A DNA stretch of 55,065 nucleotides from Vicinamibacterales bacterium (GTDB lineage: Bacteria; Acidobacteriota; Vicinamibacteria; Vicinamibacterales; CAVVIG01). The translations under genes were made by a program, and so were the position numbers. This document shows, in pieces, positions 37,165 through 55,065 of the stretch (position 1 is the stretch's first letter; the number at the start of each line of letters is the position of its first letter). Under the pieces are notes generated by a model that saw only the letters and a program-made list of their open reading frames with translations, was not told the origin of the DNA and did no database searches. Location: positions 1-55,065 of the forward strand of contig JBEBGB010000001.1 in assembly GCA_040081675.1 (NCBI GenBank), in the 5' to 3' direction.

Positions 37165-37182
37165 CGGACGTCTTCGCTATCC

Positions 37183-39961: not shown

Positions 39962-40058
39962 AGTCCTCAGGCCTGCGCGTCAGTAGAAGCTCTGACACGC
40001 ACGCCATCTCGCCGTCGCGCGCGCTGCCCCTGCCATTGCCTGCGGCTGAGGGCGCCGT

Positions 40059-41204
40059 GTGACCGCGTCGCCGCTGCGGGTCGCGCTGGTCGCTGACTTG
40101 CTCTCCGAACGATGGCCCAGCATGGATCTGGTAGCGGACATGTTGTTCGCGCAAATGCGCGACGCCGGATCGGACCGATCGATGCGCGTTGACCTGCTTC
40201 GCCCGACGCTGTCGAGCCGCGGAGAGCGTGTCGGCAGATACGTCAATCGGTTCTGGGACTATTCACGGTGGCTGCGGAAGCGAGCGCGTGACTTCGACGT
40301 GTTTCACGTCGTCGATCACAGCTACGCGCACCTTGTGCACGTGCTTCCGGCTGGGCGGGCGATCGTAACCTGCCATGATGTGGACGCGTTCATGCCCCTG
40401 GTTGATGCGCGAGTGATCCCCACTCGACTGCCAAAGACGCTGACTCGATTTGTGTTGTCGGGCATGGCGAAGTCGGCCTGCGTGACGTGTGATTCTCGCG
40501 CCACTTACGACGAGGCACGACGCCACCGTTTCGTCGCACCGGACCGACTTCTGGTCGTGCCGATTGGCGTCGATCCCGCGCTGTCATCCAGGCCTGAGCC
40601 AGCGGCAGACGCCGCCATCGACAGTCTCCTGGGCCCGCGTCGAGCCGACGTTGTCGAACTGCTGCATGTGGGGTCCTGCATTCCGCGCAAGCGAATCGAT
40701 GTGCTGTTGAAGGTCCTGCGAGCGGTGCGCGACGTCGATCCTCGGGTTCGATTGCTCAAGGCCGGCGGCTCGTTGACTCGCGAGCAATTGGCGCTTGCGA
40801 GGACCCTCGCAGTGGACGCGCACATCGTTCAATTGCCCTTTCTCGAATCTCGAACGCTCGGTGCACTCTACCGTCGCGCAGCGGTGACGATCGTGACTTC
40901 CGAGCGCGAAGGTTTCGGTCTGCCGGTCGTCGAGGCCGCGGCGTGCGGCACCCCCGTCGTGGCCACTGACATCCCCGTGCTCCGAGAGGTCGGCGGCAGC
41001 GCGGCCGCCTATGCGCCGCTTGACGATATAGGTCGTTGGCAAGAAGCGATCGTCAGCTATCTGGCCGCCGGCCGAGACGTGGCTCAGTCTCGGCGCATGG
41101 GCGAGGAAGCCGCCGCGCGATTCAGTTGGCGCTCCTGCGCCACAGCCATGGCGGCAATTTACGCTGACGTGGGCCGACGAGCCGCCGACGCAAGTACTCC
41201 ATGA
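40059..41204 (+). CDS. GT-B fold glycosyltransferase (family 4-like)
   Basis: 'LLHVGSCIPRKRIDVLL' and 'TSEREGFGLPVVEAAACGTPVVATDIPVLREV'. Confidence 0.85.
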   Translation: MTASPLRVALVADLLSERWPSMDLVADMLFAQMRDAGSDRSMRVDLLRPTLSSRGERVGRYVNRFWDYSRWLRKRARDFDVFHVVDHSYAHLVHVLPAGRAIVTCHDVDAFMPLVDARVIPTRLPKTLTRFVLSGMAKSACVTCDSRATYDEARRHRFVAPDRLLVVPIGVDPALSSRPEPAADAAIDSLLGPRRADVVELLHVGSCIPRKRIDVLLKVLRAVRDVDPRVRLLKAGGSLTREQLALARTLAVDAHIVQLPFLESRTLGALYRRAAVTIVTSEREGFGLPVVEAAACGTPVVATDIPVLREVGGSAAAYAPLDDIGRWQEAIVSYLAAGRDVAQSRRMGEEAAARFSWRSCATAMAAIYADVGRRAADASTP

Positions 41205-42364
41205 GTGGAGCAGGAAAACGCGGCGGGGAGTCACGCATCGTCGGGTTGGACGGCCTTCGGGCCTTGTCGATTCTGCTGGTGGTGCTCGGCCACGGATGGT
41301 CGACGATTCCGATCGCTCGAAACTTCCCGGGTCTTGGCAGATACCTGGGGAACAGTTCGCTTGGGGTGACGACGTTCTTTGTGATCAGTGGTTACTTGAT
41401 CACGTTTCTGCTCTGCAACGAACGCCGACGCTCGGGCACCATCTCGCTTCCAGCGTTCTACATGCGACGCGTGCTGCGGATTTTCCCCGCCCTGTACGTC
41501 TATCTCCTTGTCCTGGTGCTGGTACGGTCGCTCGGCCTGATTCACACCACCAACGGCGATCTCGGCATAGCCGCGACGTACCTCGCCAACTACAATCATC
41601 TGCTCCCGATCACGACAAACGCCGACTACTGGTTCGTCGGACACTTCTGGTCACTGTCGTTGGAAGAGCAGTTCTATCTGCTGTGGCCCGTTACCCTGCT
41701 CGTGGCTGGTCTGACACGGTCGCGCGCGGTCGCGCTGCTCATCGTGGTGGCATCGCCCGTGATAAGAGTGATCACCTACGCCGTCTGGCCCGAAGCCAGA
41801 GGGCAAATCGGGATGATGCTTCAGACGGCGGTCGATTCGATCATGGTGGGTTGCTATCTCGCGCTGGTCCACGAACAACCTGGCGTCACGGCGTTCTGGA
41901 ACAGGGTGTCATCCTGGGTCTGGCCGCTCGCGGCAAGTGTGTTCCTCGTCCTCGTCTCACCCTGGATGACGTTTCGTTTCGAAGGCGCTTACACCATCAC
42001 GATCGGCATGACGCTGAACAGTCTCGCTATTGCCTTGCTGATTGGCTGGGTCGTCAGAAGCCCCGAGTCAGGATTCAGCCGCGCCCTGTCGACGCCCGCC
42101 TTGCGCTACATCGGGACCCGGTCCTACGGCTTGTATCTGTGGCAGCAGCTCTTTCTCGCACCGAAGGTTGCGATGTGGGTCTTTCCGTTTCCCCTGAACG
42201 TGGTCGCGATTCTGATGGCTGCCGAGTGTTCTTACCGGTGCGTCGAGCGGCCGTTTCTAGGGATGCGGGATCGCTTCCGCGGCGCGACACGCGAGCCAGC
42301 TCGTCACGAGTCATCTCTCGTGTCCACTCACCTTCGCGCCACGCAGCCTGCGATAGACCAGTGA
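41201..42364 (+). CDS. Acyltransferase family 3 membrane protein
   Basis: 'GLDGLRALSILLVVLGHG' N-terminal His motif, about 10 TM segments, and 'LGTRSYGLYLWQ' near the C-terminus. ATGA overlap with the upstream gene. Confidence 0.85.
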   Translation: MSGAGKRGGESRIVGLDGLRALSILLVVLGHGWSTIPIARNFPGLGRYLGNSSLGVTTFFVISGYLITFLLCNERRRSGTISLPAFYMRRVLRIFPALYVYLLVLVLVRSLGLIHTTNGDLGIAATYLANYNHLLPITTNADYWFVGHFWSLSLEEQFYLLWPVTLLVAGLTRSRAVALLIVVASPVIRVITYAVWPEARGQIGMMLQTAVDSIMVGCYLALVHEQPGVTAFWNRVSSWVWPLAASVFLVLVSPWMTFRFEGAYTITIGMTLNSLAIALLIGWVVRSPESGFSRALSTPALRYIGTRSYGLYLWQQLFLAPKVAMWVFPFPLNVVAILMAAECSYRCVERPFLGMRDRFRGATREPARHESSLVSTHLRATQPAIDQ

Positions 42365-43533
42365 CACGCACGAACACGTTGCGCGTGCTACACGTAGGCA
42401 AGTTCTATCCGCCTTCGCGCGGCGGCATGGAGAAGGTGCTACAGGTGCTGGCCGAGGCCGAGCGGTCCGTCGTGGACAACCATGTGCTCGTTGCGAACGA
42501 GGGCCTGTCCACCGTGCGCGAGACGGTCAACGGAGTCCCTGTCACACGCGTCGGCTCGGTGACACGCGTCGGCGCTGTCGCGGTCTGCCCGGCGTTTCCG
42601 TTCTGGATGCGTTCCCTGGACGCGGATGTCATGGTCGTCCATGAGCCGAACCCTGTGGCACTGGTTGCTCATGCGCTCGTGCGCCCCACATCCAAACTCG
42701 TGTTCTGGGTGCATGCAGAGGTCGTGAGGCCTGCGTGGCGGTACAAGGTGTTCTATCGGCCGTTTCTTCGTCGCATGCTCGCGCGCGCCGACCGCATCGT
42801 CGTCGCCTCGCCGCAGATGGTCGAGTGTGCCGCGGAACTCCAGCCGTATCGAGACAAGTGCACCGTGATTCCGTACGGACTCGATGCCGACCAGCACACG
42901 CCGACAGCTGCTATCGCTGCTCGCGTCGCCGCGCTGAAGGCGAAGTCCGATGACCCGATCGTGCTCTTCGTCGGACGGCTCGTGCCCTACAAGGGAGTTG
43001 ACGTTCTCCTGCGTGCCGCTCGGAACGTCAGAGCCCGCGTTGTGATTGTGGGCGACGGGCCGATGCGCCCGGCTCTGGAGCAACAGGCCCGAGAGCTGGA
43101 AATCGCAGACCGGGTCCAATTCACCGGCAATGCAGGTGCGGAGGAGCTGTCGGCTCTCTACAACGCGTGCGATCTCCTCGTCTTGCCGTCTGTCACGAGG
43201 GCTGAAGCCTTCGGCATGGTGCAGCTAGAGGCCATGTCCTGTCGCAAGCCGGTCATCTGCACTGATCTGCCTTCGGGAGTTCCGTGGGTGAATCAGCACG
43301 GCATCACAGGACTGGTGGTGCCTCCGCAAGATCCGGCAGCACTCGCGTCGGCAATGTCCGCGCTCCTCTCCGACCCCGCTACGCGCTCCAGAATGGGCGA
43401 ACTGGGACGCGCGCGCGTCAACAGTCAGTTCACCGTCAGCCGTCTGGTCGAGCAGACGACGCTTCTCTACCGTTCGCTCGTCCAACCGGTGCCAGCGACA
43501 GCTGCCTTGGCAACCTGGCGAGTGGAACGATGA
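42361..43533 (+). CDS. GT-B fold glycosyltransferase (family 4-like)
   Basis: Trimmed to GTG 42361 (GTGA overlap). 'LRVLHVGKFYPPSRGGMEKV', 'VLFVGRLVPYKGVDVLL', 'EAFGMVQLEAMSCRKPVICTDL'. Confidence 0.85.
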   Translation: MTRTNTLRVLHVGKFYPPSRGGMEKVLQVLAEAERSVVDNHVLVANEGLSTVRETVNGVPVTRVGSVTRVGAVAVCPAFPFWMRSLDADVMVVHEPNPVALVAHALVRPTSKLVFWVHAEVVRPAWRYKVFYRPFLRRMLARADRIVVASPQMVECAAELQPYRDKCTVIPYGLDADQHTPTAAIAARVAALKAKSDDPIVLFVGRLVPYKGVDVLLRAARNVRARVVIVGDGPMRPALEQQARELEIADRVQFTGNAGAEELSALYNACDLLVLPSVTRAEAFGMVQLEAMSCRKPVICTDLPSGVPWVNQHGITGLVVPPQDPAALASAMSALLSDPATRSRMGELGRARVNSQFTVSRLVEQTTLLYRSLVQPVPATAALATWRVER

Positions 43534-44195
43534 AGGCGACGGCTGTCGGGACGCCCCCGCTGCGCGCCGCACTGCCGCCAGTGCCCGTGCCGCTTGGTAA
43601 ACGCGCGCTTGACGTCTGTCTCTCGGGCATCGGCCTGCTGGGTTCGGCGCCTATCTGGCTGGCCTTGGCCGTGGCAATCAAGCGCGAAGACGGTGGCCCG
43701 ATTTTCTACACGCAGGACCGGGTAGGAGAGGGCGGCCGGGTGTTCACCGTGTTCAAGTTTCGCTCGATGATCCCCAACGCGGAGGCTGTCGTCGGTGCTG
43801 TGCAGGCCACTGAGGAAGACCCTCGCGTGACACGAGTGGGCAGACTCATGCGAGCGACTGCGATGGACGAATTGCCGCAACTATGGAACATCTTCCGCGG
43901 CGACATGAGCTTTGTCGGTCCGCGCGCGCTTCGGCCGGGTGAAATTGAAGCGACCGGCGAGGCGCTCGTGGCCCTGGAGGATGTTCCTGGATACGCCGAC
44001 CGCTGTCGCGTTCGCCCGGGTTTGACGGGCGTCGCGCAAGTCTACGCGCCGCGAGACGTTGGGCGCCGTAACAAGTTTCGCTACGACCGGGTCTATACAC
44101 TGCGTCAGAGTTTCTGGCTCGATGTGCGACTTATCCTGCTCTCGTTCTGGATCACGTTCCGTGGCCGGTGGGAGCACCGCGGCGAAAAGATATAG
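43530..44195 (+). CDS. Small single-domain polyprenyl-phosphate sugar phosphotransferase (bacterial sugar transferase)
   Basis: Trimmed to ATG 43530 (ATGA overlap). 'PIFYTQDRVGEGGRVFTVFKFRSM' and 'MDELPQLWNIFRGDMSFVGPRA'. Confidence 0.9.
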   Translation: MKATAVGTPPLRAALPPVPVPLGKRALDVCLSGIGLLGSAPIWLALAVAIKREDGGPIFYTQDRVGEGGRVFTVFKFRSMIPNAEAVVGAVQATEEDPRVTRVGRLMRATAMDELPQLWNIFRGDMSFVGPRALRPGEIEATGEALVALEDVPGYADRCRVRPGLTGVAQVYAPRDVGRRNKFRYDRVYTLRQSFWLDVRLILLSFWITFRGRWEHRGEKI

Positions 44196-44254
44196 CGCGC
44201 GCGCGCTCTCTCTCCGTCCCTTCCTTCCTTCCTTTCTTCCTTCCTTTCTTTCTC
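44195..44254. repeat. (GC)6 alternating tract fused to a CT/CCTT-type pyrimidine-rich tract whose last 38 nt (44217-44254) are uninterrupted
   Basis: GCGCGCGCGCGC (44195-44206) is followed by CTCTCTCTCCGTCCCTTCCTTCCTTCCTTTCTTCCTTCCTTTCTTTCTC. The top strand is pure pyrimidine over 44217-44254. The tract begins at the last base of the sugar-transferase stop codon. Confidence 0.9.
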
Positions 44255-44396
44255 GCCGCCTACGGGCGCTCACTCCTCCTCCTGATAGCCCGTCTGAGCT
44301 GTTACGCCTCACGATCGCTGTCCCGGCCGGTGGGTCTGCTCCGCACGTGCGGGCCAGCATCATCAGCGGGCATCGTGAGGTACTCTTAGACCGACG

Positions 44397-45590
44397 ATGC
44401 ATGACGTCCTGGTTGTAGGCGGGGGCCCCGGAGGTCTGTACACCGCCACGCTATTAGCGCGTGAAGGGCTTGACGTGGCAGTCCTCGAGGAGCACGCGAC
44501 ACCGGGTGAACCCGTCCACTGCACCGGGGTACTTGCTGTAGAAGCATTCAGCGAGTTCGGGCTCTCGCGCCAGCCAATCCTGAACGCACTCGCCACGGCA
44601 CGATTCATTTCACCATCAGGCTTGTCGATCGCCCACACGACGCCGCGAACCGAGGCGCTCGTGATCGATCGCGCACTGTTCGACCAGGACCTTCATCGAC
44701 AGGCACGCGAGGCCGGTGCGACCGTCGTTCTCGGCACGCGCGTGAACGCGGTCGACGTCGACAGTACTGGCGTGACGCTGCGAACCGCAGACCGTCATTT
44801 CAGGGCCAGGGCCTGCGTGCTGGCCTGCGGCGCCAACTACTCGTTGCATCGGCAACTCGGTCTCGGTCTCCCCGCGGCCTATTTGCGTTCCGCCCAACTC
44901 GAGATGCGAGCCGCTCGAACTGCCGATGTCGAGGTGTACTTCGGCAACGACGTCGCGCCTCAGGGTTTCGCGTGGGTCGTTCCCGTTGAACGAGGCGCCG
45001 AGCGCTACGCGCGCGTCGGCCTGATGTGCGAAGAAGACCCGTCGGGACACTTTCGACGCTTCGTGGCGCGCAATCGAGAGCCGCTCGGATTGACGGTGCC
45101 GTGCGGGCCAGACGGCGATGTCGTCCCTCGCCAGAAGATCCTGCCGCTGGCGCCTATCGCACACACGTACGCCGACCGCGTCATTGCCGTCGGCGACGCC
45201 GCAGGACTCGTAAAGGCCACGACAGGCGGCGGCATCTACTACAGCCTGGTCTCCGCGTCGATCGGCGCCGACGTTCTCACCGCGGCCCTGAGAACGAACA
45301 CGCTCGAGAGCGCCAGCCTCGCCGCCTACCAGCAGCGCTGGCAGCAGCGACTCGGGCCCGAACTCGACGCGCAGTACTCACTACGCGAGCTCGCCGAGCG
45401 GATGGACGATGACGAGATCGATGCGCTATTCGATCTCGCGCAAACCAACGGTGTGATGCCCATCGTGCGTCGCACCGCGCGCTTCAATCAGCATCGCGAC
45501 CTGATCCTGTCGTTGCTGAAGCATCCTCCCGCGCGCCGGCTCCTCTTCAGGGAGCTCGTGACCCGTGCCACCGCCTTCCCGCTCCGCTAA
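44397..45590 (+). CDS. FAD-dependent oxidoreductase of the geranylgeranyl-reductase family
   Basis: 'HDVLVVGGGPGGLYTATLLAREGLDVAVLEE' and 'RVIAVGDAAGLVKATTGGGIYYS'. 397 aa. Confidence 0.8.
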   Translation: MHDVLVVGGGPGGLYTATLLAREGLDVAVLEEHATPGEPVHCTGVLAVEAFSEFGLSRQPILNALATARFISPSGLSIAHTTPRTEALVIDRALFDQDLHRQAREAGATVVLGTRVNAVDVDSTGVTLRTADRHFRARACVLACGANYSLHRQLGLGLPAAYLRSAQLEMRAARTADVEVYFGNDVAPQGFAWVVPVERGAERYARVGLMCEEDPSGHFRRFVARNREPLGLTVPCGPDGDVVPRQKILPLAPIAHTYADRVIAVGDAAGLVKATTGGGIYYSLVSASIGADVLTAALRTNTLESASLAAYQQRWQQRLGPELDAQYSLRELAERMDDDEIDALFDLAQTNGVMPIVRRTARFNQHRDLILSLLKHPPARRLLFRELVTRATAFPLR

Positions 45591-47034
45591 CGAGCGGCCC
45601 GGTCGTCTGTCGGGCCAGGCGAGCCTCGTGCTCGCGGGTACCCTCGTGGCGCTGGCGTGGGGAGCGTTTGCGTTCGGTGCAGTCTATCGGTGGGCTTACG
45701 TGCCGCTCGCGATCTTGTGCGCGTGTGTCGGTCTCTTCGGTCTCGCCACCGGGAGGCGCTCCGTTTGGGACGCTCGGTGGGTACTCTTCCCGATAGTCGG
45801 CATCGGCCTGATCGGTGCCATCCAGCTCCTACCGCTTCCCGGCAGCTGGCTTGCGCTGGTGAGTCCGGGAACGGTGGCCTTTCTTCGTCGCTACGACCTT
45901 GCGTACGCATTCGCTCTGGATCCGAACACGAACACTCCGGGCGCTGTGACGCACGCGATCTCCGTTTCTCCGCTGTTGACACTGCGCGCCCTCGCTCTCC
46001 TCGCTGCACCACTCCTGCTGTTTGTTGGACTGTATCGCACGCTGTCGCGAACCGCGGCGAGGCGTCTTGCCGCCGGTGTGGTGTCTATCGGCTGCGCGCT
46101 CGCCCTGATTGGTGTCGGCCAGAAGGCGCTGCTGGGCGACCACGCGTACGGTGGCATGCGCATCTACGGCTTCTGGCGTCCCGAGTCGTTGCTTACAACG
46201 CCGTTTGGTCCATTCATCAACAGGAATCACTTCGCAGGCTGGATGCTCATGGGAACGCCACTCGCTCTTGGGCTGGCGGCAGGTGGGTTCGTGCGGGCGC
46301 TGCCCACGCTGCGGGGCAGAGGCGCGCGCGCCTGGCTCGTGTGGTGCTCCGATCCCGACGGTGGACTCACGTTGCTCTACTTCATCGCGGCGATTCTGAT
46401 GACGCTGTCGTTGTTCATGACCGGCTCTCGCTCGGGCATCGGCTGCTTCGTTGTCGTCGCCGCCGGGATGCTCTTCGCCGCGCGCCGACTCGCAAGGGCA
46501 CGAACGATGATTGGGCTGAGCATTGTTGCGACGCTGACGCTCGGGCTCGTGCTGCAGTGGGCCGGCCCGGACGCGGCGCTCGAACGCTTCGTTCGGGAGT
46601 CACAGTCGATGTCGCTTCGGCTGGACATCTGGCGAGCCTCGCTGGAGGCGTTCCGGCAATTTCCAGTGCTCGGCAGTGGCCTGGATAGCTTCGGTACCAC
46701 GATGCTGGTGTTCCAACCAGGGGCAAGGGATTTACGCTACGTCGAAGCTCACAACGAGTACTTGCAGCTGCTCGTCGAGGGCGGACTGGTCACATTTGGC
46801 CTGATGATCCTGGCGATCGCCGCGGTGGTACGCGGCGCCAGACGCCGCTTCCGCGCCGGCGACGATGGACTCGACGGACATTGGGTGCGTGTGGGAGCAG
46901 CCATCGGACTGGTCGCCATCGGGCTGCAGTCACTGGTGGAGTTCAGCCTGCAGATGCCAGGCAACGCGGCTTTGTTCACCGTGTTGCTGGCGATGGTGCT
47001 CTACATCCCCACGCCAATCCGAAACAAACCGTAG
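45565..47034 (+). CDS. O-antigen ligase / Wzy_C-family polytopic membrane protein
   Basis: About 11 TM segments, 'TGSRSGIG' and 'AHNEYLQLLVEGGLVTFGL' (Wzy_C signature). The GTG start overlaps the reductase gene by 26 nt, so the start is uncertain. Confidence 0.8.
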   Translation: MPPPSRSANERPGRLSGQASLVLAGTLVALAWGAFAFGAVYRWAYVPLAILCACVGLFGLATGRRSVWDARWVLFPIVGIGLIGAIQLLPLPGSWLALVSPGTVAFLRRYDLAYAFALDPNTNTPGAVTHAISVSPLLTLRALALLAAPLLLFVGLYRTLSRTAARRLAAGVVSIGCALALIGVGQKALLGDHAYGGMRIYGFWRPESLLTTPFGPFINRNHFAGWMLMGTPLALGLAAGGFVRALPTLRGRGARAWLVWCSDPDGGLTLLYFIAAILMTLSLFMTGSRSGIGCFVVVAAGMLFAARRLARARTMIGLSIVATLTLGLVLQWAGPDAALERFVRESQSMSLRLDIWRASLEAFRQFPVLGSGLDSFGTTMLVFQPGARDLRYVEAHNEYLQLLVEGGLVTFGLMILAIAAVVRGARRRFRAGDDGLDGHWVRVGAAIGLVAIGLQSLVEFSLQMPGNAALFTVLLAMVLYIPTPIRNKP

Positions 47035-47100
47035 CGTGACCAACTCGCGCTTTCGTTGCTGCTGTGCGCAGACAGCCATGGCAACGCCTTCGGTGACGTG

Positions 47101-48234
47101 TCAGTGCGTGTCAGCAGCGCTGCGCCAGAGCCACCGACGAGCGCCACGAAGAGCCCGCAGCACGTACATCGCCGCCAATGGCATGCGGCTCGACGGCGCA
47201 TAGACACTGCGCATGTAGTCGCGGCTCGGAAACAGATGCTCGCGCATCAACTGCGACCGCTCGGACCAGGTTGTGAGCACCCGCAGATCGTCGAGAACGA
47301 CCCTGGCCTGTGCGCGAGGGCGAAGATACTCGGCCGTACGCTCAGGTGCGTGGCTGACCAGTCGAGCGTCGCTGAGCACCCACGCGGGAACGTGCGTGTG
47401 GAGCCACCGGGCTGCCTGCGAAAGACCTTCTCGACACACCGCGGCGACACCACGCTCGGCGATGATCGTCAGAAAACCGTCCCACTCCCGAGCCTCGAGC
47501 CGCGAGGCGATGAGGTGGATGTCGTACGTCCACTTCAACTTGTGAGGTTCGTCGTTGTGGTGAGCCACTTGATGCATGCAGGCGATGAGCAGCGCGTGCA
47601 CATTCGATGGTCCACGGGCACGCGGCCCCAGCGATGGGATCGGCTGCGAGGCCGCGAGCAGCTCATCGAAGCGCAGGACGTGCGCGAAGACCTGCGGGCT
47701 CGCAAGCCGCCAGTGCAGGTCCACGAGGTGAACATCAGCGCCGTGCCGCGTCAGGGCATGGAGTTGCTGGGTCGCCGTCAGCTCGCCGGACGGCTTTGCA
47801 TCGGGGACATAGCCGAGGCCGCCCAGCACGCGGGTTGCGCTATCCCGCTGTGTGCGCCCAACGAGCAGGTCCGAATCGATCCGCGCGCGAAGGTCAGGTC
47901 TCGAGTAATGGCTGTATGCCAGATGACTGCCCTTGATGACCAGCACCTGAACGCCGTCGGCGTCCAGTTCGTTCAGCAACCGGCGCAGTTCAATCTCCGC
48001 AGCCAGGTCGGATGCCGCGAGTTTCTGCGACGCTTCTCGAAACACCCTTCGAAGCGTGTCGGCCAACTGGTCGCCTGCGGCGAGACGATCGGCCACGAGC
48101 GCCACGATATCGTGCTCTCGGGCGGCGCTCAGTAAGAGCTCCGCGTCAGACGTGGTCGATGAGCCCGCATCGCACTCCTCGCCTCTCAGCATCGAAGCCA
48201 GGCACTCATCCAGGCCGATAGATCCCTTCTGCAT
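47101..48234 (-). CDS. Nucleotidyltransferase (PF14907-like, lasso-cluster-associated)
   Basis: Trimmed to ATG 48234, 10 nt after the ABC stop. Pol-beta-type NTase motif 'VIKGSHLAYSHYSRPDLRARIDSDLLV', and 'KWTYDIHLI' further on. Confidence 0.7.
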   Translation of the reverse strand: MQKGSIGLDECLASMLRGEECDAGSSTTSDAELLLSAAREHDIVALVADRLAAGDQLADTLRRVFREASQKLAASDLAAEIELRRLLNELDADGVQVLVIKGSHLAYSHYSRPDLRARIDSDLLVGRTQRDSATRVLGGLGYVPDAKPSGELTATQQLHALTRHGADVHLVDLHWRLASPQVFAHVLRFDELLAASQPIPSLGPRARGPSNVHALLIACMHQVAHHNDEPHKLKWTYDIHLIASRLEAREWDGFLTIIAERGVAAVCREGLSQAARWLHTHVPAWVLSDARLVSHAPERTAEYLRPRAQARVVLDDLRVLTTWSERSQLMREHLFPSRDYMRSVYAPSSRMPLAAMYVLRALRGARRWLWRSAADTH

Positions 48235-48244
48235 GGTCAGCGGC

Positions 48245-50062
48245 TCACGCAGCACCGATCTCGACGCCCTGGGCGTCAGAGAGCGCGCGGAAGCGACTGG
48301 TCGGGTTGCCGAGCAGCGACGACCATGTGCCACACTCCCGCACGCGGCCGCCTTCGATCACGTAGATTTGATCGGCGTTTCTGATGGTGGACAACCGATG
48401 CGTGATGACGACGATCGTGATCTGCTCGTGGAGACCGTCGATCGCCGCCTGAATTCGCTGCTCGTTCTCGGAGTCGAGCGCACTGGTCGCTTCATCCAGA
48501 ATCAGAACCTGGGGCTGTCGTAACAGGGCTCTCGCAAGTGAGAGGCGCTGGCGTTCCCCGCCGGAAACCAGCACACCGCGATCGCCGATCACCGTGTCGA
48601 GCCCAGCCGGAAGGGCACGGACAAAGTCGGCAGCTGCGGACCGCTCCAGGGACTGCCAGATGGCTTCGTCGGTGGCCGAGGGACACGCCCACAACAGGTT
48701 TGCGCGAATGGTGTCGTGAAACAGCAACGTCTCCTGCGCGACGTATCCGATCCTCGCGCGCCACGACTGCAGCCGCTCCGGCGTGAGTGGCATCTCGTCG
48801 ACGAGCACGGCGCCGTGTGCAGGTGTGACGAGGCCCATCATCAGGTCGGCGATCGTGCTCTTGCCTGCGCCAGATGGTCCCACGATCGCGGTGGTCGTAT
48901 GTACGGGCACATGCAGCGTGACATCCTCCAGCGCCGGCCGCCCTGGCGTCTCCAGGTAGCTGAATGTCACATGGCGGCAGTCGAGCGACGCTTCGAACGT
49001 GACGCGGTCGTGCCGGGTTGGCTCGGGCTCCGCCGCAGCGAGGCACTGCGCCTCGGCTTCGACGACGCTCTCGAAGGCGGGCAACTCCACCAGCAACACC
49101 TGCGCCCTCTCATAGAGCGAAGTCACACGTGGCACAAGCCGCGCGAACAGGAAGATGAGCAGCAGCAGCGAGGCTGCGGATATCTGCATGACCGCTTGCG
49201 CGACGTACACGATCGCGGCGAGCAGCACCGCCGAGCCAATCGTCAGCCACTGACGGGCGCGGACGGACGCCGACATCGCACTGAGGCTTGCCTGGCCCAC
49301 CTCCGACGATAGCAGGCCGAAACGTTCCGCAAGACGCGACCCCGCGCCGTATCCCTTGGCCATCTTCATGCCCGCCAGATGGTCGAACGTCGCGCTGTGC
49401 AGACGCGTGGACGCGTCGGTGTACCGTTCGCCTGCAGCGTGTGCCCTCGCGAGTTGCCCTCGCATGGCGAGCGCCAGCACGGCTCCGCAGGTCACCACGA
49501 ACGTGGTCATCACCGGCGAAACCCGGAATGCGAGCACCACGTACACGAGCGCAATCACGCCCGTCACGAACAGGTCCATCAGGTAGTACGCAGCCGACGC
49601 GACACGATCGATCCGTTCGGTCAGCAACTGACCGAAGGTCGATGTTCGAGTTCGCGAGAAGTACACCCACGTGGTGCCCGCGATCGCGCGATGCAGTCGC
49701 CTTCGCAACGTGTCGACGATCTGCTCGCGGAGCCGCGTCTGCACGGTCGTTTGCTGCCGTTGAAGCAGGCTCTGGACGGTAACGATCGTGACGTACAGCG
49801 CCAGAACGGCGGGCAGCGTCGGAACCAGGCCGACCAGGGCGAATCCGCTCCTGAACACGCCCATGACGCGACCGAGAGCGCCCTGCCCCGCGTCGACTCC
49901 GACCAGTTGCAGAAGCGGGATGAGCACCAGAAGCCCGATTCCTTCCGCCAGACCAACGGCGAAGGTCAGGAGCATGGTGAGTGCCGCGCGGCGCGGCGCG
50001 ACCGCGATGATCGCCGTCACGAACTGCCTCAACGCGCGGAGAGTTGGAGAGAGGGTGCTCAC
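48245..50062 (-). CDS. ABC exporter, fused permease + ATPase (McjD-type lasso peptide export/immunity)
   Basis: 605 aa with a 6-TM domain, then Walker A 'GPSGAGKST', signature 'VSGGERQRLSLARA' and Walker B 'LILDEATSALD'. Starts 6 nt after the B2 stop. Confidence 0.9.
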   Translation of the reverse strand: MSTLSPTLRALRQFVTAIIAVAPRRAALTMLLTFAVGLAEGIGLLVLIPLLQLVGVDAGQGALGRVMGVFRSGFALVGLVPTLPAVLALYVTIVTVQSLLQRQQTTVQTRLREQIVDTLRRRLHRAIAGTTWVYFSRTRTSTFGQLLTERIDRVASAAYYLMDLFVTGVIALVYVVLAFRVSPVMTTFVVTCGAVLALAMRGQLARAHAAGERYTDASTRLHSATFDHLAGMKMAKGYGAGSRLAERFGLLSSEVGQASLSAMSASVRARQWLTIGSAVLLAAIVYVAQAVMQISAASLLLLIFLFARLVPRVTSLYERAQVLLVELPAFESVVEAEAQCLAAAEPEPTRHDRVTFEASLDCRHVTFSYLETPGRPALEDVTLHVPVHTTTAIVGPSGAGKSTIADLMMGLVTPAHGAVLVDEMPLTPERLQSWRARIGYVAQETLLFHDTIRANLLWACPSATDEAIWQSLERSAAADFVRALPAGLDTVIGDRGVLVSGGERQRLSLARALLRQPQVLILDEATSALDSENEQRIQAAIDGLHEQITIVVITHRLSTIRNADQIYVIEGGRVRECGTWSSLLGNPTSRFRALSDAQGVEIGAA

Positions 50063-50068
50063 ACCCCG

Positions 50069-50581
50069 CTAGCTCGCTGGAATGCTGTGCGGGGCGCTCG
50101 GCGGCGGCTCGGCGTCCAGGTGTCCGTCAGGACCAAAGGCGAACGCAGGGGTGTAGGACGCAATCGCGGATTGCGGTTCGCCAACCAACTGCCCGTCGAC
50201 CAGCACCCAGGCGTGACCGATCACACCGGCGGGGTCACGACCGACGCCGATGACCAACGTCGGATGCGCGCCCGCCGCGCACAGGTAGCGATACGCGATG
50301 AGGCTGCGTTCGAGACAATTGGCGCCCCGGTTCCACCGCGTGAGACGGGCGCCCCACTGCGCGAACGTGATGATGCGGCGCTCGCGATCGGCGTCTCGAG
50401 TCGCGCGCCGCTGCGGCTGATGCATGACCGCGGCGAGTGACTTCACCGAGACAACGCGTTTCAGCGCTGGAAGGACAAGAGCCCACGCCAATGCCTTGGT
50501 CACCAGGATCGCGTCGGAGACGGTGCGCACTTCCTGACCAAGACGACGAAGCACGTAACCACGCGGTGCGGCTGGAGACAT
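50069..50581 (-). CDS. Lasso peptide leader peptidase B2 (transglutaminase-fold Cys protease)
   Basis: Trimmed to ATG 50581, which overlaps the kinase stop by 1 nt (TGATG). 'GANCLERSLIAYRYL' (catalytic Cys) and 'GVIGHAWVLVDG' (catalytic His). Confidence 0.85.
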   Translation of the reverse strand: MSPAAPRGYVLRRLGQEVRTVSDAILVTKALAWALVLPALKRVVSVKSLAAVMHQPQRRATRDADRERRIITFAQWGARLTRWNRGANCLERSLIAYRYLCAAGAHPTLVIGVGRDPAGVIGHAWVLVDGQLVGEPQSAIASYTPAFAFGPDGHLDAEPPPSAPHSIPAS

Positions 50582-51510
50582 CACTGCACCGTGGGGGACG
50601 GCGTGGTCGGGCCGCGTCGGCGCGCCTGTCCGGTGAGACCGCCGTTCACGCCGCAATCGGCCGCGTGTGCTTCGAGTTGATCGAGGTTGGATGCCAGCGC
50701 GGGGAAGGTTCTGGGAAAGGTGAATCGAAAGGAAGGCACCGCGACGGCCAGCGACAGGTAATCGCGCATGAGCCGTTGGTTGTGTTCCGGCTCGTTGATG
50801 CTGAACGCATGTGCTTGCGCCAGCAAGAGCGGAAGGCTCTCGGCAGCTTTGAGTCGTGTGAACGACACCGGCGTCGACGGGTCAGGCGACGGGTCCAGGG
50901 CGTAGATCACCCTCAGGCGGAGACAGGTCGATGGCCAGTCGAACGGGATATCCGTTGCCTCCGACTTGCCAAAGTACTCTGCTGTCGCTTGACGCAGTCG
51001 TGCTTCGCTTCTGAGGGGGTACAGGTTGATGGGCGCGTCAGTGTCGTTGGGGTGACACGAAAAGGCCAGGGCGTCGTCGGAAACCGGCGTCCATCCAGGA
51101 CGCTGGGCCAGAGCGTACGCGGTTGTGGACTTGCTCGCACCGCTCGGACCAGTGAACGCGATCACGTCGCCAGTTGGCGACGCAACCGCGCTGGCATGCA
51201 GAACCTGTCGGTGCCAGATTGGATAAATGGCGGGGAGCCAGCTTCTCCACACGAGCTGTTCGAACTGGGATCGATCAACTCCGGTGCACGGGCACAGTAC
51301 CAGTTCCGGGCGGTCGGCGGTAAAGGTCGCGCCGCCGAATTCCGGCTGCCAAATCCAGTACTGTTGCCCGACCAGAAAGCAGTGCGTGGGTGCCTCACCG
51401 TCCACGGGCCAGGTGGCCAGATGCTGGCCAGCGGTACTGACACGAACGAATACGTCGTCCGTCTGGCTCACCACCTGCCAACGCAGGACCGGGACGACCC
51501 ACGATGACAC
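50581..51510 (-). CDS. HPr-kinase-homologous peptide kinase (lasso tailoring)
   Basis: P-loop 'FTGPSGASKSTTAYALA' (compare HprK GxSGxGKS). Start set to GTG 51510, just downstream of the precursor stop. The tracked 373-aa ORF extends over the precursor gene in another frame. Start uncertain (+/- 60 nt). Confidence 0.7.
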   Translation of the reverse strand: MSSWVVPVLRWQVVSQTDDVFVRVSTAGQHLATWPVDGEAPTHCFLVGQQYWIWQPEFGGATFTADRPELVLCPCTGVDRSQFEQLVWRSWLPAIYPIWHRQVLHASAVASPTGDVIAFTGPSGASKSTTAYALAQRPGWTPVSDDALAFSCHPNDTDAPINLYPLRSEARLRQATAEYFGKSEATDIPFDWPSTCLRLRVIYALDPSPDPSTPVSFTRLKAAESLPLLLAQAHAFSINEPEHNQRLMRDYLSLAVAVPSFRFTFPRTFPALASNLDQLEAHAADCGVNGGLTGQARRRGPTTPSPTVQ

Positions 51511-51521
51511 GGTCGTAACGC

Positions 51522-51683
51522 CTAGTCGCCCATCATCTGTTCGAGGGTGACGCTGCCGTTGTCCATGTTGATCATCGTCTTCGAGCCTGCCCGGACGAAG
51601 TCGCGCAGGTTGCCGAGTTCTTGAACTGACGGCGAATGCCAGACCGGCTTGAGGCGGGCTTCGTTGCTCTTGGGTGCTGCCAT
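51522..51683 (-). CDS. Lasso peptide precursor (53 aa): MAAPKSNEARLKPVWHSPSVQELGNLRDFVRAGSKTMINMDNGSVTLEQMMGD
   Basis: Not in the ORF track (below its size cut-off). ATG 51683 is preceded by GGGAG (51691-51695) with a 7-nt spacer, and TAG ends at 51522. The leader has W-x2-P-x-V-x3-G spacing like the lasso RRE-recognition motif. The C-terminal part has a small residue followed by Asp 8-10 residues later. It sits between the cyclase and kinase genes. Confidence 0.7.
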   Translation of the reverse strand: MAAPKSNEARLKPVWHSPSVQELGNLRDFVRAGSKTMINMDNGSVTLEQMMGD

Positions 51684-51699
51684 GAAGAAACTCCCTGAA

Positions 51700-51731
51700 C
51701 ACCGCTAACGCGGTGGTTTGTCGGTATTCTA
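51700..51731 (-). promoter_or_regulatory. Possible precursor-specific -10 box (TAGAAT) and 5'-UTR hairpin
   Basis: Minus-strand TAGAAT at 51731-51726, with no convincing -35. The CACCGC-GTTA-GCGGTG hairpin at 51715-51700 would sit at the 5' end of such a transcript, just upstream of the SD. Confidence 0.25.
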
Positions 51732-51814
51732 GCGAATCGGTCGCAGTGCAAGCCAGATTGGTTGGGCTAGAAGCACGACTTTGTGTATACGCGAGGAGAC
51801 AAGCGGCGCCGTTT

Positions 51815-53701
51815 TCAGCGCCCCGTGTGCACTGACGTCCAGAGTTCTGCGCTCATGAGCGCGAACATGCGCACCAATGTGCTGCTGTCCGGGTCCGCTG
51901 ACCCGGCGTCTTCCCGTAAGACCCGCGGGTCTACCAGGTTCAACGCCGACAACGTCTCGAACTGGTGCATCCGCCAGGCGCTCGTCACTCCGTCGCGAAG
52001 AACGCGAAACACCAGATCCTGGCCTTGTTTCGGATATTCCTTTCGTTGCCTGCCGAATCCGAGACCGGGGAGGTGTCGCTCCACGACCGGTCGAAGCAGG
52101 CCCTTGTACTTGTTGCCATGGAGGAGCACTTGCGGCGGAATTCGCCGGAGGAGCTGTACCAACGAGGCGTCGTGGTAGGGAACGAGCAACCGCAGCCCGC
52201 ACAGCCGTTCGACGTGAAATGTCGTCTCGAACTCGTGGTGGACGTACTGGTTGTCATCCGAAAGCGATTGCCGCAGATAGCTTCTCGGAATCCTGCCGGC
52301 GCTGCTTAGTGCCGGCGTTCGTCGGTTCGCGAGATGCTCGATGAGCTCATCTCGCAAGGCGAGGTCTGGGCACAGCCACGCAGGGATTGCGCCGTCCGCA
52401 CGGCTCCGGTGATAGCGTGCCTTGGCGCGTGGAAGCGTCAGCATCGCGAACGAATCGACAAAGGGCCGCACCGCGCCGTGCCAGAGCAGGTGCCTCGCCG
52501 CGCTCCGGTAGGACGCTCCGCCTGTCCCGATCTCCGAGTGAATGAAGCCGCGGAGGTCGCTCAGGCGAAGTCGGCGCAGGAGATCGGCGGCATGAGCGTC
52601 TGGGACAGACAGCCAGTTGTCGGCGCCGGAGCCAGTCAGCAGCGTGTGCAGGTTGCTGTGCACCGCTTCGCGGAAAAAGCCCATGGCGGAGCCGACCCAG
52701 TAGATCCGCGACGGTCCCGGCAACTGCGGCGTCACTTCGAGAGAAAGCTCGACTTCGTTCCGCTCGTGCGTCCACTCCGACTTGCGCCTGACCACGTGCG
52801 GCATGCCCAGCGCGCCGGCCGACTGCGCCTGCTGATCCCACTCATGGAGCAGTTCGTCGGTCTGGCCCGAAAGCGCCACAAGCGGCGGCCGCGCGTGATC
52901 GCGACAGTATTTTGTCGCGAGCGCCGCCAGAGTGACCGAATCGACGCCGCCACTGAGCATGAGGCCGTCTGGCGCAAGCCGCATGCAGCGCGAAACCGCC
53001 CGATAGAGGGCAGGCTCGAATGCGTCCAGAGCCTCGCGTTCGCTGAGGCAGTCGGCGTCGGTTTCGGGCACCGCATCCCAGTACTTGCGTTCGCGCGTGG
53101 TACGGTCCGCAGCAACCTCGAGGTAGTGACCCGGTCGCAGGCGCTTGATGTCTGCAAAGAAGGTCTCGCCGGCGCCGGGCCAGAGCGTCATCGCCGCCAG
53201 AGCCAGTGACAGCCTGTTCGGCGTGTTGGGTACGTCGCCGCTCGCTGCCAGGGTCAGCACGTTCGCGCCGAACCAGATCGCTCGCGGGCCGGCTGAATAG
53301 AACAAGGGATGCCGACCCATGGGATCGCGACCGAGGAACAAGCGATGCGTGTCGGCGTCAGCGATCGCGACGAGATACGCTCCCTCGAGCCTGGACAGGC
53401 ACTCCATGCCCCACGCCTGATACGCCGACGCGACGATGTGCGCGCACGACGCTGCCCCGGGCAGACGCAGTTGCTCGCACAACTCGTCCCGATCGAACAG
53501 GTACCCGTCGAACAGCACGGTGCTCGGGCGTCCCGGCGCGCCGTAGGTCCAGAACGTCGCTCCAGTGTCTGCACGCTGCACATCGAACGGGCCGACGCTG
53601 CTCAGTCCATCTCGGGGCGGCCGGGCCGACCGCTGGTCGTATGCAAAGGCGGCGACCCACAGGGGCAGGTCGTACCGGGTGTCGATACTGGCTGTACTCA
53701 T
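51815..53701 (-). CDS. Lasso cyclase C (asparagine-synthetase B homologue)
   Basis: 628 aa. PP-loop 'MLSGGVDS' is present. The N-terminus 'MSTASIDTRYD' lacks the Cys2 nucleophile of glutamine-hydrolysing AsnB. The start overlaps the PqqD stop (ATGA). Confidence 0.9.
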   Translation of the reverse strand: MSTASIDTRYDLPLWVAAFAYDQRSARPPRDGLSSVGPFDVQRADTGATFWTYGAPGRPSTVLFDGYLFDRDELCEQLRLPGAASCAHIVASAYQAWGMECLSRLEGAYLVAIADADTHRLFLGRDPMGRHPLFYSAGPRAIWFGANVLTLAASGDVPNTPNRLSLALAAMTLWPGAGETFFADIKRLRPGHYLEVAADRTTRERKYWDAVPETDADCLSEREALDAFEPALYRAVSRCMRLAPDGLMLSGGVDSVTLAALATKYCRDHARPPLVALSGQTDELLHEWDQQAQSAGALGMPHVVRRKSEWTHERNEVELSLEVTPQLPGPSRIYWVGSAMGFFREAVHSNLHTLLTGSGADNWLSVPDAHAADLLRRLRLSDLRGFIHSEIGTGGASYRSAARHLLWHGAVRPFVDSFAMLTLPRAKARYHRSRADGAIPAWLCPDLALRDELIEHLANRRTPALSSAGRIPRSYLRQSLSDDNQYVHHEFETTFHVERLCGLRLLVPYHDASLVQLLRRIPPQVLLHGNKYKGLLRPVVERHLPGLGFGRQRKEYPKQGQDLVFRVLRDGVTSAWRMHQFETLSALNLVDPRVLREDAGSADPDSSTLVRMFALMSAELWTSVHTGR

Positions 53702-54006
53702 GGCGAGGGGCCTTCGTGGGCCAGTTCAATCAGCCCCTTTGTTCTGAAGTCCTCGATGAGTCTATGCACTTCGCGCGACACGAGGTCGGTCGGTTCGAGA
53801 TACTCGGCTGCCAGGCGCTCGACGATCTCGTTCACGGTAAGTCCGTCAGCGATCAGCAGTGCGACGCGCGCGGCGGTTTCGTTGAGCGAGTAGGCCGCTT
53901 CAGCGGTCAGCTTCAGAGCGAGAGCCTCGTTGCCCACGTGCCGAATGACGACATCTGGCGCGAACCGAACCGCGGACACCGCATCGGGGAATGGCTGATC
54001 CCCCAT
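53698..54006 (-). CDS. PqqD-family RiPP recognition element (lasso B1)
   Basis: Trimmed to ATG 54006 (TGATG overlap with the methyltransferase stop). 102 aa. 'VVIRHVGNEALALKLTAEAAYSLNETAARVALLIADGLTVNEIVERLAAEY...VHRLIEDFRTKGLI' is the PqqD pattern. Confidence 0.85.
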   Translation of the reverse strand: MGDQPFPDAVSAVRFAPDVVIRHVGNEALALKLTAEAAYSLNETAARVALLIADGLTVNEIVERLAAEYLEPTDLVSREVHRLIEDFRTKGLIELAHEGPSP

Positions 54007-55065
54007 CAGGCAAAGCGCTTCACGATCGCGCGCACGAATCGTGAGGCATCCTCGTGGGTCTGGTACCTGGTCGGCCATTGCTCGAGAACGCCGGCCGCGA
54101 TCTCTCTGACCGGCGTCGTGCCGGCACACCGCGCAAGTACGAACTGCGCGGCCTCGCCTTCGACGTTCAAGGCGGGCAGGTAATCCATCGCCGCCTTCTT
54201 CAGAGTCGACGCCGTCATGGGGTCGGCGAGCATTGTCGAGTGGCGCTGCGAGCCCCCGTTCCACGACACGCGCCAGGTCCAATCACCGTAGGGCGCGCGG
54301 TCGAGGCGAAGTGCCACGCGATCGCCAACCGACAGGGCAATGGGCGGGTCGAGCGGGAGAAAGCCAGCCGACCAGTGCATGGGTTCCGCGTCTGGCGCCG
54401 TCGACACCCAGCGTTCGCCCAGCCGCATCGTGAACCAACCAGCGAAACCGTGACAGAGCTCCGCGGTGCGAACGGTGAATTCGGTCTCGGCGTGAATCGG
54501 TCCGTAACTGTCCGACAGAAAGTCGAGGCTGTGCACCTCGCGGGGTTCGGCGAGATAGACCACGTTCGTGCGATCCCACCGAAAGTGCACGGTGTTGGCC
54601 GCGTATGCGCGAGCGGGCTCGAGCGTCACGCCGTGTTGAGGCTCGCTCCAACTGGAGATCTCGCGGGCGTGCAGACGCGGAGCGCTCACCGGGGCGATGA
54701 CGATCGTGGCTCGGTCGGGAATCATCGCTCCGCCCGGTTTCATGAGCGTGTCGCGCGCGCGGAACAGAACGGGCAGCAGATCCTCGCTCATGAGGAGATT
54801 GCCGGTGAGTACGGACACGATGACGTCCACCGGTTCCGGAATCTGAACGTCGTCGAGACCACCGTGCAGGCACTGCACGACGTCCTGCAAATGGTTGGCG
54901 CGTGCGGCTTCGGACGCAACCGACACCACCTCTTCGGGTTCAACGAGGTAGACGCGCTTCGCTCCAAGTCTGGCCGCCATCAGGCCATGGATGCCGAGAC
55001 CTGCGCCGAGGTCGAGCACGACGCTCGACGGAGTGATCACCCGCTCGAGCGCGTCGGCATACGCA
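54006..55065 (-). CDS. PRMT-fold (protein arginine methyltransferase-like) SAM methyltransferase with C-terminal PqqD/RRE-like extension; 5' end outside window
   Basis: The reading frame is open to the window edge ('AYADALERVITPSSVVLDLGAGLGIHGLMAARLGAKRVYLVE' = SAM motif I/post-I). 'SVLTGNLLMSEDLL' resembles the double-E loop, and 'HGFAGWFTMRL...PMHWSAGFLPL' resembles the PRMT beta-barrel/THW loop. The last ~55-75 aa resemble the helical half of PqqD. Confidence 0.7.
   Translation of the reverse strand, partial: AYADALERVITPSSVVLDLGAGLGIHGLMAARLGAKRVYLVEPEEVVSVASEAARANHLQDVVQCLHGGLDDVQIPEPVDVIVSVLTGNLLMSEDLLPVLFRARDTLMKPGGAMIPDRATIVIAPVSAPRLHAREISSWSEPQHGVTLEPARAYAANTVHFRWDRTNVVYLAEPREVHSLDFLSDSYGPIHAETEFTVRTAELCHGFAGWFTMRLGERWVSTAPDAEPMHWSAGFLPLDPPIALSVGDRVALRLDRAPYGDWTWRVSWNGGSQRHSTMLADPMTASTLKKAAMDYLPALNVEGEAAQFVLARCAGTTPVREIAAGVLEQWPTRYQTHEDASRFVRAIVKRFA

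Follow-up and report, generated by a model that had tools for sequence, protein, structure and literature searches.

A probable kinase- and nucleotidyltransferase-type lasso peptide operon with a PRMT-fold methyltransferase and a second discrete RRE in a Vicinamibacterales genome

We analyzed a 55,065-bp stretch of DNA (here called the window) that makes up an entire contig (JBEBGB010000001.1) of a Vicinamibacterales (Acidobacteriota) metagenome-assembled genome (MAG). Its minus strand between 47101 and 55065 holds a gene cluster that probably encodes a lasso peptide, a ribosomally synthesized and posttranslationally modified peptide (RiPP), together with a kinase, a nucleotidyltransferase, and a protein arginine methyltransferase (PRMT)-fold enzyme that would tailor it. 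Eight closely packed open reading frames lie there, in ascending order N, D, B2, K, A, C, RRE-2, and M (Table 1), where RRE stands for RiPP recognition element; the kinase gene carries the locus tag ABMA15_00215. Recomputed overlaps are 1 nt for M and RRE-2, 4 nt for RRE-2 and C, and 1 nt for K and B2, and the gaps are 131 nt from C to A, 11 nt from A to K, and 10 nt from D to N. The gap from B2 to D is 6 nt if D starts at the GTG at 50062 and 48 nt if it starts at 50020. A GGGAG Shine-Dalgarno sequence is found 8 nt 5′ of the precursor ATG. Translational coupling among the operon genes is tight.

The eight co-directional genes, their spacings, and the 131-nt gap that had been described in the original prediction were all recovered at the same positions, as was its claim that the methyltransferase gene begins outside the window, since the frame is open through the last window base. 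The description of the cluster as complete did not hold. Logan contig L001 (13,157 bp) is 99.906% identical, without gaps, to window positions 46546-55065 and runs beyond the window end, and we therefore used it to complete the operon picture (window position = 59703 minus L001 position). It adds a second PqqD/RRE gene and approximately the first 20 codons of the methyltransferase, so that the full unit on L001 (4276-12602, extending about 360 bp beyond the window) consists of nine genes: RRE-1, M, RRE-2, C, A, K, B2, D, and N. Upstream of RRE-1, a 200-nt intergenic region is followed by a divergent HAD/NT5C-like phosphatase gene. In the 131-nt spacer, an Rfam search returned no family, the fold energy was not better than that of shuffled sequences (z = −0.16), and no sigma-70-like site was found; neither this spacer nor the convergent gap at the far end of the operon held an RNA element or terminator above background.

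Table 1. Features of the lasso operon and its surroundings, in window coordinates unless L001 is named
Feature	Position	Strand	Description and basis
RRE-1	L001 4276-4572, beyond window		Discrete PqqD-family gene, 98 aa; PF05402 E 2e-15; 6-nt gap before M
M	54006..55065	−	PRMT-fold S-adenosylmethionine (SAM) methyltransferase with RRE-like extension of three helices at the C terminus; cut off by contig end (361-372 aa when complete)
RRE-2	53698..54006	−	Discrete PqqD-family leader-binding protein, 102 aa ("B1" of the original prediction); PF05402 E 4e-11
C	51815..53701	−	Asn-synthetase-like lasso cyclase, 628 aa; PF00733 E 9e-19, PF13537 (GATase_7) E 8e-14
Spacer	51684..51814	−	131 nt, 5′ of precursor gene
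A	51522..51683	−	53-aa precursor, MAAPKSNEARLKPVWHSPSVQELGNLRDFVRAG (leader, about 51585-51683) and SKTMINMDNGSVTLEQMMGD (predicted core, 51525-51584, plus 1 codon if Gly33 is residue 1)
K	50581..51510	−	P-loop precursor-peptide kinase (PEPCK/HprK fold), 309 aa; AlphaFold 2 (AF2) model, Foldseek, BsfK homology
B2	50069..50581	−	Lasso leader peptidase (transglutaminase core), 170 aa, Cys89 and His123; PF13471, NF033537
D	48245..50062	−	Half-size ABC exporter (transmembrane plus nucleotide-binding domain), 591-605 aa; PF00005 E 6e-30, PF00664; start GTG 50062 or 50020
N	47101..48234	−	PF14907 (NTP_transf_5) nucleotidyltransferase-fold protein, 377 aa; PF14907 E 1.9e-39, 136 bits vs cutoff 31
Wzy_C membrane protein	45565..47034	+	O-antigen ligase/O-oligosaccharyltransferase family; PF04932 E 1.7e-20
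Geranylgeranyl-reductase-family flavoprotein	44397..45590	+	TIGR02032 184 bits > cutoff 158.8
Acyltransferase	41201-42364		Acyl_transf_3; polysaccharide locus
FkbM-type methyltransferase	37755-38777		Polysaccharide locus
HAD-superfamily phosphatase	L001 3261-4073 (window-equivalent 55630-56442, outside contig)	L001 minus, divergent	NT5C (5′-nucleotidase) type, 270 aa, DxDGT

The set of genes expected of a split-B lasso system (RRE, B2, C, A, and D), combined with a kinase, a PF14907 protein, and a PRMT-fold methyltransferase, was supported by hidden Markov model (HMM) matches: PF00733, PF05402, PF13471, and PF14907, four of the five families named in the original prediction, all gave significant hits. 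B2 matched PF13471 (E = 7e-18) and the NCBIfam model NF033537, "lasso peptide biosynthesis B2 protein" (57.8 bits; cutoff, 33), and carries its expected Cys89 in NCLERS and His123 in GHAWV. Also as predicted, C has the PP-loop SGGVDS, at residue 250, and starts with MSTASI..., lacking Cys2. In NCBIfam, the nearest models to D were the HepA family and MsbA, with every score below cutoff. N is the counterpart of BsfN, PsmN, and LppN, and no solved structure related to it by sequence was found.

C was assigned as the lasso cyclase on the basis of its context and the missing Cys2. It might instead belong to the polysaccharide pathway as a genuine amidotransferase, similar to those associated with XrtA/PEP-CTERM, and be surrounded by lasso-like genes through coincidence. 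The NCBIfam similarities of C do include the true AsnB model TIGR01536 (asn_synth_AEB; 130 bits) and the XrtA/PEP-CTERM system amidotransferase (86 bits), and the gene stands beside a polysaccharide locus. These scores, however, are far under the respective cutoffs of 267 and 817 bits, the nucleophilic Cys2 needed for glutamine hydrolysis is absent, and C shares 4 nt with an RRE gene and comes before the precursor gene in every relative. We thus regard an amidotransferase role as scarcely credible and keep C as a putative lasso cyclase.

The two RRE proteins are paralogous (hhalign probability, 99.6%), and in a PDB search both resembled the lasso B1 proteins TbiB1 and TfuB1, with TbiB1 as the best match of RRE-2 (E = 1e-4). 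BsfB1 was matched almost equally by the two family profiles (55 bits for RRE-1 and 57 bits for RRE-2), and the NCBIfam lasso-PqqD models scored RRE-1 higher (50 bits, versus 29 bits for RRE-2). In relatives with a rearranged gene order, the RRE-1 counterpart adjoins B2. No second precursor that could go with the second RRE was found upstream of or between the genes.

The leader of the precursor contains WHSPSV (WxxPxV), which fits the RRE-binding motif [Y/W]xxPx[L/V/I]. Precursor homologues are located between C and K in every related locus, and L092 to L095, with kinases 76 to 88% identical to K, encode an identical or near-identical peptide. Leaders of the close family follow the pattern W..P.L.ELGNLR.[FL]V[RKQ].G.A., and the cores follow G-K-S-x4-D-G...G-x-E-x-M. 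The window peptide, ...FVRAG followed by SKTMINMDNGSVTLEQMMGD, is an outlier of this family with a shorter spacer. An Asp is conserved 8 or 9 residues from a small N-terminal residue, which in the window allows a ring of 8 residues (Ser34-Asp41) or 9 residues (Gly33-Asp41). In the family, the ring-size rule places cleavage before G-K-S, leaving Ala at −2, and the same residue at −2 favors Ser1-Asp8 in the window peptide. The family consensus is G1-K2-S3, and the corresponding S-K-T of the window peptide puts a Thr at position 3 if Ser is residue 1 or at position 4 if Gly is residue 1. By analogy with characterized precursors, this Thr after the conserved Lys is the likely phosphate acceptor. 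The window precursor terminates in ...MMGD, and family C termini include D, P, F, E, N, M, G, K, H, and others; this Asp end and the variability among relatives exclude C-terminal Ser phosphorylation of the paeninodin type. Some family cores have two Cys residues in the tail (L003, L004, L008, L009, L029, L031, and L034; e.g., ...SASCGAEAMTGQVGNCPF), and these sequences suggest a tail disulfide in those members; the window peptide has no Cys.

The kinase escaped the family models. PF07475 (HPr kinase) did not match the 309-aa K even at E ≤ 5, NCBIfam gave nothing at E ≤ 0.01, and Pfam, NCBIfam, and profile-versus-PDB-sequence searches returned generic or weak P-loop matches only. As these searches failed, we assigned K as a kinase by its fold and its homology to lasso kinases. 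An AF2 model built from a 32-homologue alignment (predicted local distance difference test [pLDDT], 90.5) retrieved ATP-dependent phosphoenolpyruvate carboxykinase (PEPCK; E = 7e-8) and the HprK/P of L. casei (1kkl; E = 1e-5; TMt, about 0.5) in a Foldseek search against the PDB. His105, Lys127, Asp145, and Asp146 are invariant across the 32 homologues, and mutagenesis has shown this His-Lys-Asp-Asp motif to be essential in PadeK/ThcoK and BsfK. The P-loop in the window reads GPSGASKST, in which Ser replaces the last Gly of GxxGxGKS. Against BsfK (sequence translated from PMC10368454), the K family HMM scored 42 bits over about 200 positions, and BLASTP gave 34% identity over 111 aa. These sequence and model comparisons indicate that K belongs with the BsfK-type lasso precursor kinases. 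The earlier label of an HPr-kinase homologue thus stands as regards the fold and the lasso-kinase family and fails as regards the Pfam family. The wider kinase family is large: a search of 1.84 billion representatives with the K profile gave 209 representative clusters at E ≤ 1e-30, a number that rose to 1,953 at E ≤ 1e-10. Many K homologues carry a precomputed match to PF27840, and this Pfam entry may already provide a curated model of such kinases.

The family profile of M matched PRMT6 in the PDB (E = 2.8e-52), PF22528 (PRMT_C) matched M (E = 2e-9), and the AF2 model (pLDDT, 90.3) retrieved PRMT3, PRMT6, and PRMT1 with Foldseek (E about 1e-26; TM score, 0.70 to 0.84). The likely start in L001, MSYSSVTGHRSMALD..., aligns with the N-terminal helix of PRMT6. 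By these profile and structure matches, M is a true PRMT relative with the PRMT fold, in which a Rossmann SAM domain is joined to a beta-barrel. M retains SAM motif I together with the second double-E Glu and the THW-loop His-Trp. In the double-E loop, SEWMGYxLLxES of PRMT6 aligns with SVLTGNLLMSED, SVLTGN replacing SEWMGY; the first Glu is Val or Ala in all 34 aligned homologues, and the second Glu is invariant. Following the barrel, M has a C-terminal domain of about 75 residues forming three helices. A weak PqqD match falls on residues 313 to 355 (E = 0.11), three homologues have a precomputed PF05402 match, and hhalign aligned the domain with the two PqqD families of the operon weakly, in the expected register (probability, 4%; E = 0.01; 39 columns). 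Given the weakness of the hhalign result, we call the extension RRE-like only.

Arg is absent from the predicted core of the window peptide and is not conserved in the family cores, and M is therefore not expected to be an arginine methyltransferase. Lys2 is one candidate methyl acceptor; it is invariant in the close family and absent from the cores of divergent methyltransferase-bearing clusters. A tail Met, the second candidate, is present in the core of 47 of the 51 candidate precursors of methyltransferase loci, and seven kinase-type precursors from clusters lacking a methyltransferase have no Met in their cores; neither sample is phylogenetically independent. More distant kinase representatives, sought as further methyltransferase-less controls, turned up on short contigs only. 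Met as the acceptor is a lead only; the third candidate is the Glu within E-x-M. Met S-methylation has one precedent among lasso peptides, carried out by an unrelated enzyme. Literature searches combining PRMT, arginine methyltransferase, or Vicinamibacteria with lasso peptides returned nothing relevant, and in them a PRMT-fold lasso methyltransferase was not described. To our knowledge, there is no RiPP example of such a PRMT-fold methyltransferase.

Related loci were collected with two profiles. A kinase-profile scan covering one genome per species gave 10 loci, nine of them in MAGs of Acidobacteriota/Vicinamibacteria and eight with the full syntenic set. The order PqqD′-MT-PqqD-C-A-K-B2-D-N, MT being the methyltransferase, is kept in eight GTDB Acidobacteriota MAGs and recurs in numerous contigs from metagenomes. 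When metagenomes were scanned with the methyltransferase profile, 199 matches were confirmed, 80 of which were examined as loci. At least one other lasso gene accompanies the methyltransferase in 69 of the 80, and both C and K are present in 33. Divergent versions, whose methyltransferases are 37 to 46% identical, have canonical leaders of the form YxxPxL...T-x/G (the slash marks the cut). The 69 lasso-associated loci argue that the PRMT-fold enzyme is a lasso-associated family and not a chance neighbor. The locus defines a branch that is widespread, occurring in Vicinamibacteria and in numerous metagenome contigs from soil, sediment, and aquatic settings.

Some members of this collection differ in composition. 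Several divergent methyltransferase-bearing clusters have regions with two or three tandem precursor genes (L082, 3825-4347 and 7932-8114; L083, 307-654; L038, 1310-1872; L071, 7794-8089; and L086, 11908-12515), and L082 also has two cyclase genes; the window has a single precursor. L097 (4792-9172), the one close relative that seems to lack the methyltransferase, has a kinase 66% identical and shows the order C-A-K-B2-D with no RRE or methyltransferase gene upstream of C; its contig ends in D, and a methyltransferase may lie downstream. The neighborhood of L097 differs (PadR, an Rce1-like/CPBP protease, and an ABC ATPase), and its precursor keeps G-K-S...D-G...E-S-M. A contig from a MAG labeled Bifidobacterium breve (CALQBJ020000133.1; L010, 5556-9710) holds K-B2-D-N with 46% identity to the Vicinamibacteria genes. 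There, the K match begins at residue 77 and nothing lasso-like lies upstream; the contig is probably misbinned.

Taken together, we put at about 85% the probability that this Vicinamibacterales MAG holds a lasso operon of class II type that resembles the Bsf and paeninodin clusters in combining a kinase with a nucleotidyltransferase. It has two additions that are absent from characterized clusters, the PRMT-fold methyltransferase and the second discrete RRE. We infer the whole chemistry of the pathway from homology and place it on gene content, folds, motifs, and synteny that were observed. One or both PqqD-type RREs would bind the WxxPxV leader motif of the 53-aa precursor. By homology to BsfK and LppK, which act on Ser3, K would then phosphorylate a hydroxyl residue at the core start of the linear precursor, most likely Thr3 of SKTMINMD.... 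M would methylate one or more non-arginine core residues (Lys2, the tail Met, or the Glu of E-x-M), with an RRE and the C-terminal helices of M itself presumably directing it. We placed these tailoring steps before cleavage following the demonstrated behavior of BsfK, PadeK, and StspM. As family membership suggests, B2 would act with an RRE to remove the leader, using Cys89 and His123, and C would activate the Asp side chain with ATP and close a Ser1-Asp8 or Gly1-Asp9 macrolactam round a 12-residue tail. N may decorate the phosphate; in pseudomycoidin, the decoration on the phosphate is a hexose. The ABC protein D would export the product.

Several observations weigh against this assignment or against its details. 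C is below the curated lasso-cyclase cutoffs (NF033535, 102 versus 525 bits; NF033561, 82 versus 300 bits). Where the leader ends and the core begins is ambiguous: a WxxP motif at its canonical −17 position and the homology to IIR/G of BsfA both predict a cut after FVR, an option that we ranked lowest since it leaves most members without an acidic residue at positions 7 to 9. The residue after Gly varies between Ser and Thr in the window subfamily, which fits Gly1-Asp9 at least equally well, and this variation in the nearest relatives is why we keep Gly1-Asp9 open. In L095 (8147-10163) and L096 (2866-4882), where the kinase is 76% identical and the precursor core is unchanged, B2 and D are missing; K is directly followed by N and then by Wzy_C, and these loci are either a decaying copy or a cluster that uses a peptidase and an exporter encoded elsewhere. 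No product is known for any family member, and the bsf cluster gave no mature lasso peptide in five heterologous hosts (PMC10368454).

Alternatively, the product may be a linear or leader-trimmed peptide, phosphorylated and methylated, or the cluster may be decaying and make nothing. Linear polyphosphorylated peptides (LPPs) made by the same set of kinase, N, and exporter exist, and the loss of B2 and D in L095 and L096, as well as an atypical leader spacing and an Ala at −2 that are unvalidated for any lasso protease, would suit such an outcome. Yet C and B2 are intact, translationally coupled, and conserved in the family, the SpI-type peptidase that defines LPP clusters is absent from the 13-kb locus, and the family retains the Asp at a distance of 8 or 9 residues from the small N-terminal one. 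We consider a linear product or a dead cluster very unlikely and prefer a lasso product.

A further question is how the lasso operon relates to its neighbors. The upstream 15 kb of the window (within 30000-47034) are a polysaccharide (exopolysaccharide [EPS]) locus with GT4 glycosyltransferases, a flippase, FkbM, acyltransferase, and Bac_transf genes, the reductase, and Wzy_C. The geranylgeranyl-reductase-family flavoprotein, an unusual find among EPS genes, may have the polyprenol carrier as its substrate. In NCBIfam, the Wzy_C protein showed a weak, subcutoff likeness to the exosortase-associated O-glycosylation ligase and to TfpM, an O-linking oligosaccharyltransferase. Protein O-oligosaccharyltransferases of the PglL/PilO type likewise carry the PF04932 domain. 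Wzy_C adjoins the cluster in 13 close and 4 divergent relatives (L043, L063, L072, and L086), and the reductase travels with it. In most relatives with enough flanking sequence, Wzy_C, the reductase, and Bac_transf are on one side of the cluster and the HAD phosphatase, a HEAT-repeat gene, and a GT2-like gene are on the other. In L005, L006, L023, and L032, the order is rearranged, and the reductase, Wzy_C, and the phosphatase are still adjacent and have become co-directional with N-PqqD′-B2-MT.... The HAD phosphatase adjoins the lasso cluster in 16 loci, the rearranged ones included, and could belong to it as a phosphatase opposite the kinase.

These patterns bear on the original prediction that the cluster is a unit separate from the polysaccharide pathway. 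The convergent arrangement and the 66 nt from the N stop to the Wzy_C stop were confirmed, but the conclusion drawn from them is not secured, as convergence alone is insufficient and the EPS neighbors persist through rearrangements. The operon may possibly be a module of the EPS locus, with a peptide that serves, or is built on by, the polysaccharide machinery; for instance, the adjacent Wzy_C-type ligase could take the peptide as its acceptor, or the locus could supply N with sugar donors. Such a role would be compatible with lasso chemistry, and we hold it, including these examples, as a tentative idea that is more doubtful than not. It would account for the company of Wzy_C, reductase, Bac_transf, HAD phosphatase, HEAT, and GT2-like genes in most related loci, for the adjacency that survives rearrangement, and for the Wzy_C relatives that flank divergent methyltransferase-lasso clusters, and the membership of Wzy_C in the O-antigen ligase family, with its weak TfpM likeness, points the same way. 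Paeninodin-like lasso and LPP clusters of Bacillota have independently been reported to lie within capsule loci and to be induced together with an EPS gene, and their N enzyme showed no activity when expressed heterologously, possibly because an outside partner was missing (Popov et al., 2026). Against a shared role, synteny within Vicinamibacteria could reflect simple vertical inheritance, the two units are convergent in the window, L004 has no Wzy_C within 6 kb and L097 lies in a different neighborhood, and no experiment has tied these peptides to a polysaccharide. More speculatively still, and in our view improbable, the kinase, N, methyltransferase, and lasso genes would form a conserved EPS-locus module, not an independent antibiotic cluster, in which N or a Wzy_C-type ligase does the transfer, giving a phosphoglycan with the peptide attached or else a peptide involved in priming, capping, or regulating the polymer, with the non-arginine PRMT-fold enzyme completing the decoration.

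With a lasso operon as the preferred reading, the locus bears on several problems in the field. Lasso tailoring by a kinase and a nucleotidyltransferase is known but poorly understood; the mature Bsf-type product has never been obtained, and the chemistry of PF14907 enzymes is unresolved. What is new in the Vicinamibacteria branch is a bacterial methyltransferase of the PRMT fold, whose substrate pocket is altered, along with a second, dedicated RRE. Once found, the target of M (Lys, Met, Glu, or other) would add a tailoring reaction and would also show the recruitment of a eukaryote-type protein methyltransferase scaffold to peptide natural products. A RiPP module in polysaccharide loci is now seen across two distant phyla, which makes the suspected peptide-polysaccharide link directly testable.

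The closest characterized system is the bsf cluster of Bradymonas sediminis FA350 (PMC10368454), in which BsfA, K, B1, B2, C, D, and N have the same seven functions as the window operon. The kinases have the motif His...GxxGxGKS...DD in common, both precursors are 53 aa long with a Gly-Asp end and a core of the form G/S-x-S/T-x4-D-(x)-G, leader position −2 is non-Thr in both, and C-terminal Ser phosphorylation is impossible in both. The BsfA core, GTSGNEVDGST...GD, has an experimentally mapped Gly1-Asp8 ring and phospho-Ser3. The bsf cluster has one RRE and no methyltransferase, whereas the window operon has two RREs and a methyltransferase; Thr2 of BsfA corresponds to the invariant Lys2 of the window family; and the canonical −17 YxxPxL and Ile(−2) of bsf contrast with two to five extra leader residues and Ala(−2) in the window family. 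The bsf host is Deltaproteobacteria-like, and the window host belongs to Acidobacteriota.

The paeninodin and pseudomycoidin systems (PadeK, ThcoK, PsmK, and PsmN) likewise combine an HprK-like kinase acting on the linear precursor with a PF14907-type N, split B1/B2, and an ABC exporter. In these systems, the kinase target for (poly)phosphorylation is a C-terminal Ser under strict conservation, whereas the window precursor ends in Asp; they also have no methyltransferase and a single RRE. The Bacillota LPP and paeninodin-like clusters (PMC13381572) share with the window operon a kinase, N, an MsbA-like exporter, two RREs per locus, and a polysaccharide setting, and LppK phosphorylates core Ser3. 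In those Bacillota clusters, however, the second RRE serves a second precursor and an SpI-type (archaeal-type) signal peptidase; the window has one precursor and no SpI, and its extra RRE accompanies the methyltransferase.

For M, the nearest characterized proteins are the eukaryotic type I enzymes PRMT6, PRMT3, and PRMT1, with 24 to 28% identity over about 300 residues. They share with M the SAM motif I, the "YxxVxxHxxMxxDxxR" helix, the beta-barrel, the second double-E Glu, and the THW His-Trp. Unlike them, M has Val or Ala for the first double-E Glu, an extra three-helix C-terminal domain (about 75 aa), and, in a bacterial RiPP operon, an Arg-free predicted core. SAM-dependent lasso tailoring itself is represented by LasF/StspM (C-terminal O-methyltransferases), TceM/LihM (protein isoaspartyl methyltransferase [PIMT] type), and LopH (a candidate Met S-methyltransferase); in longipeptin, the tail Met can be S-methylated. 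These known lasso methyltransferases are mitomycin O-methyltransferase-like, PIMT, or MTHFR-regulatory-domain-like, and in contrast to M, none is PRMT-like and none has an RRE-like extension.

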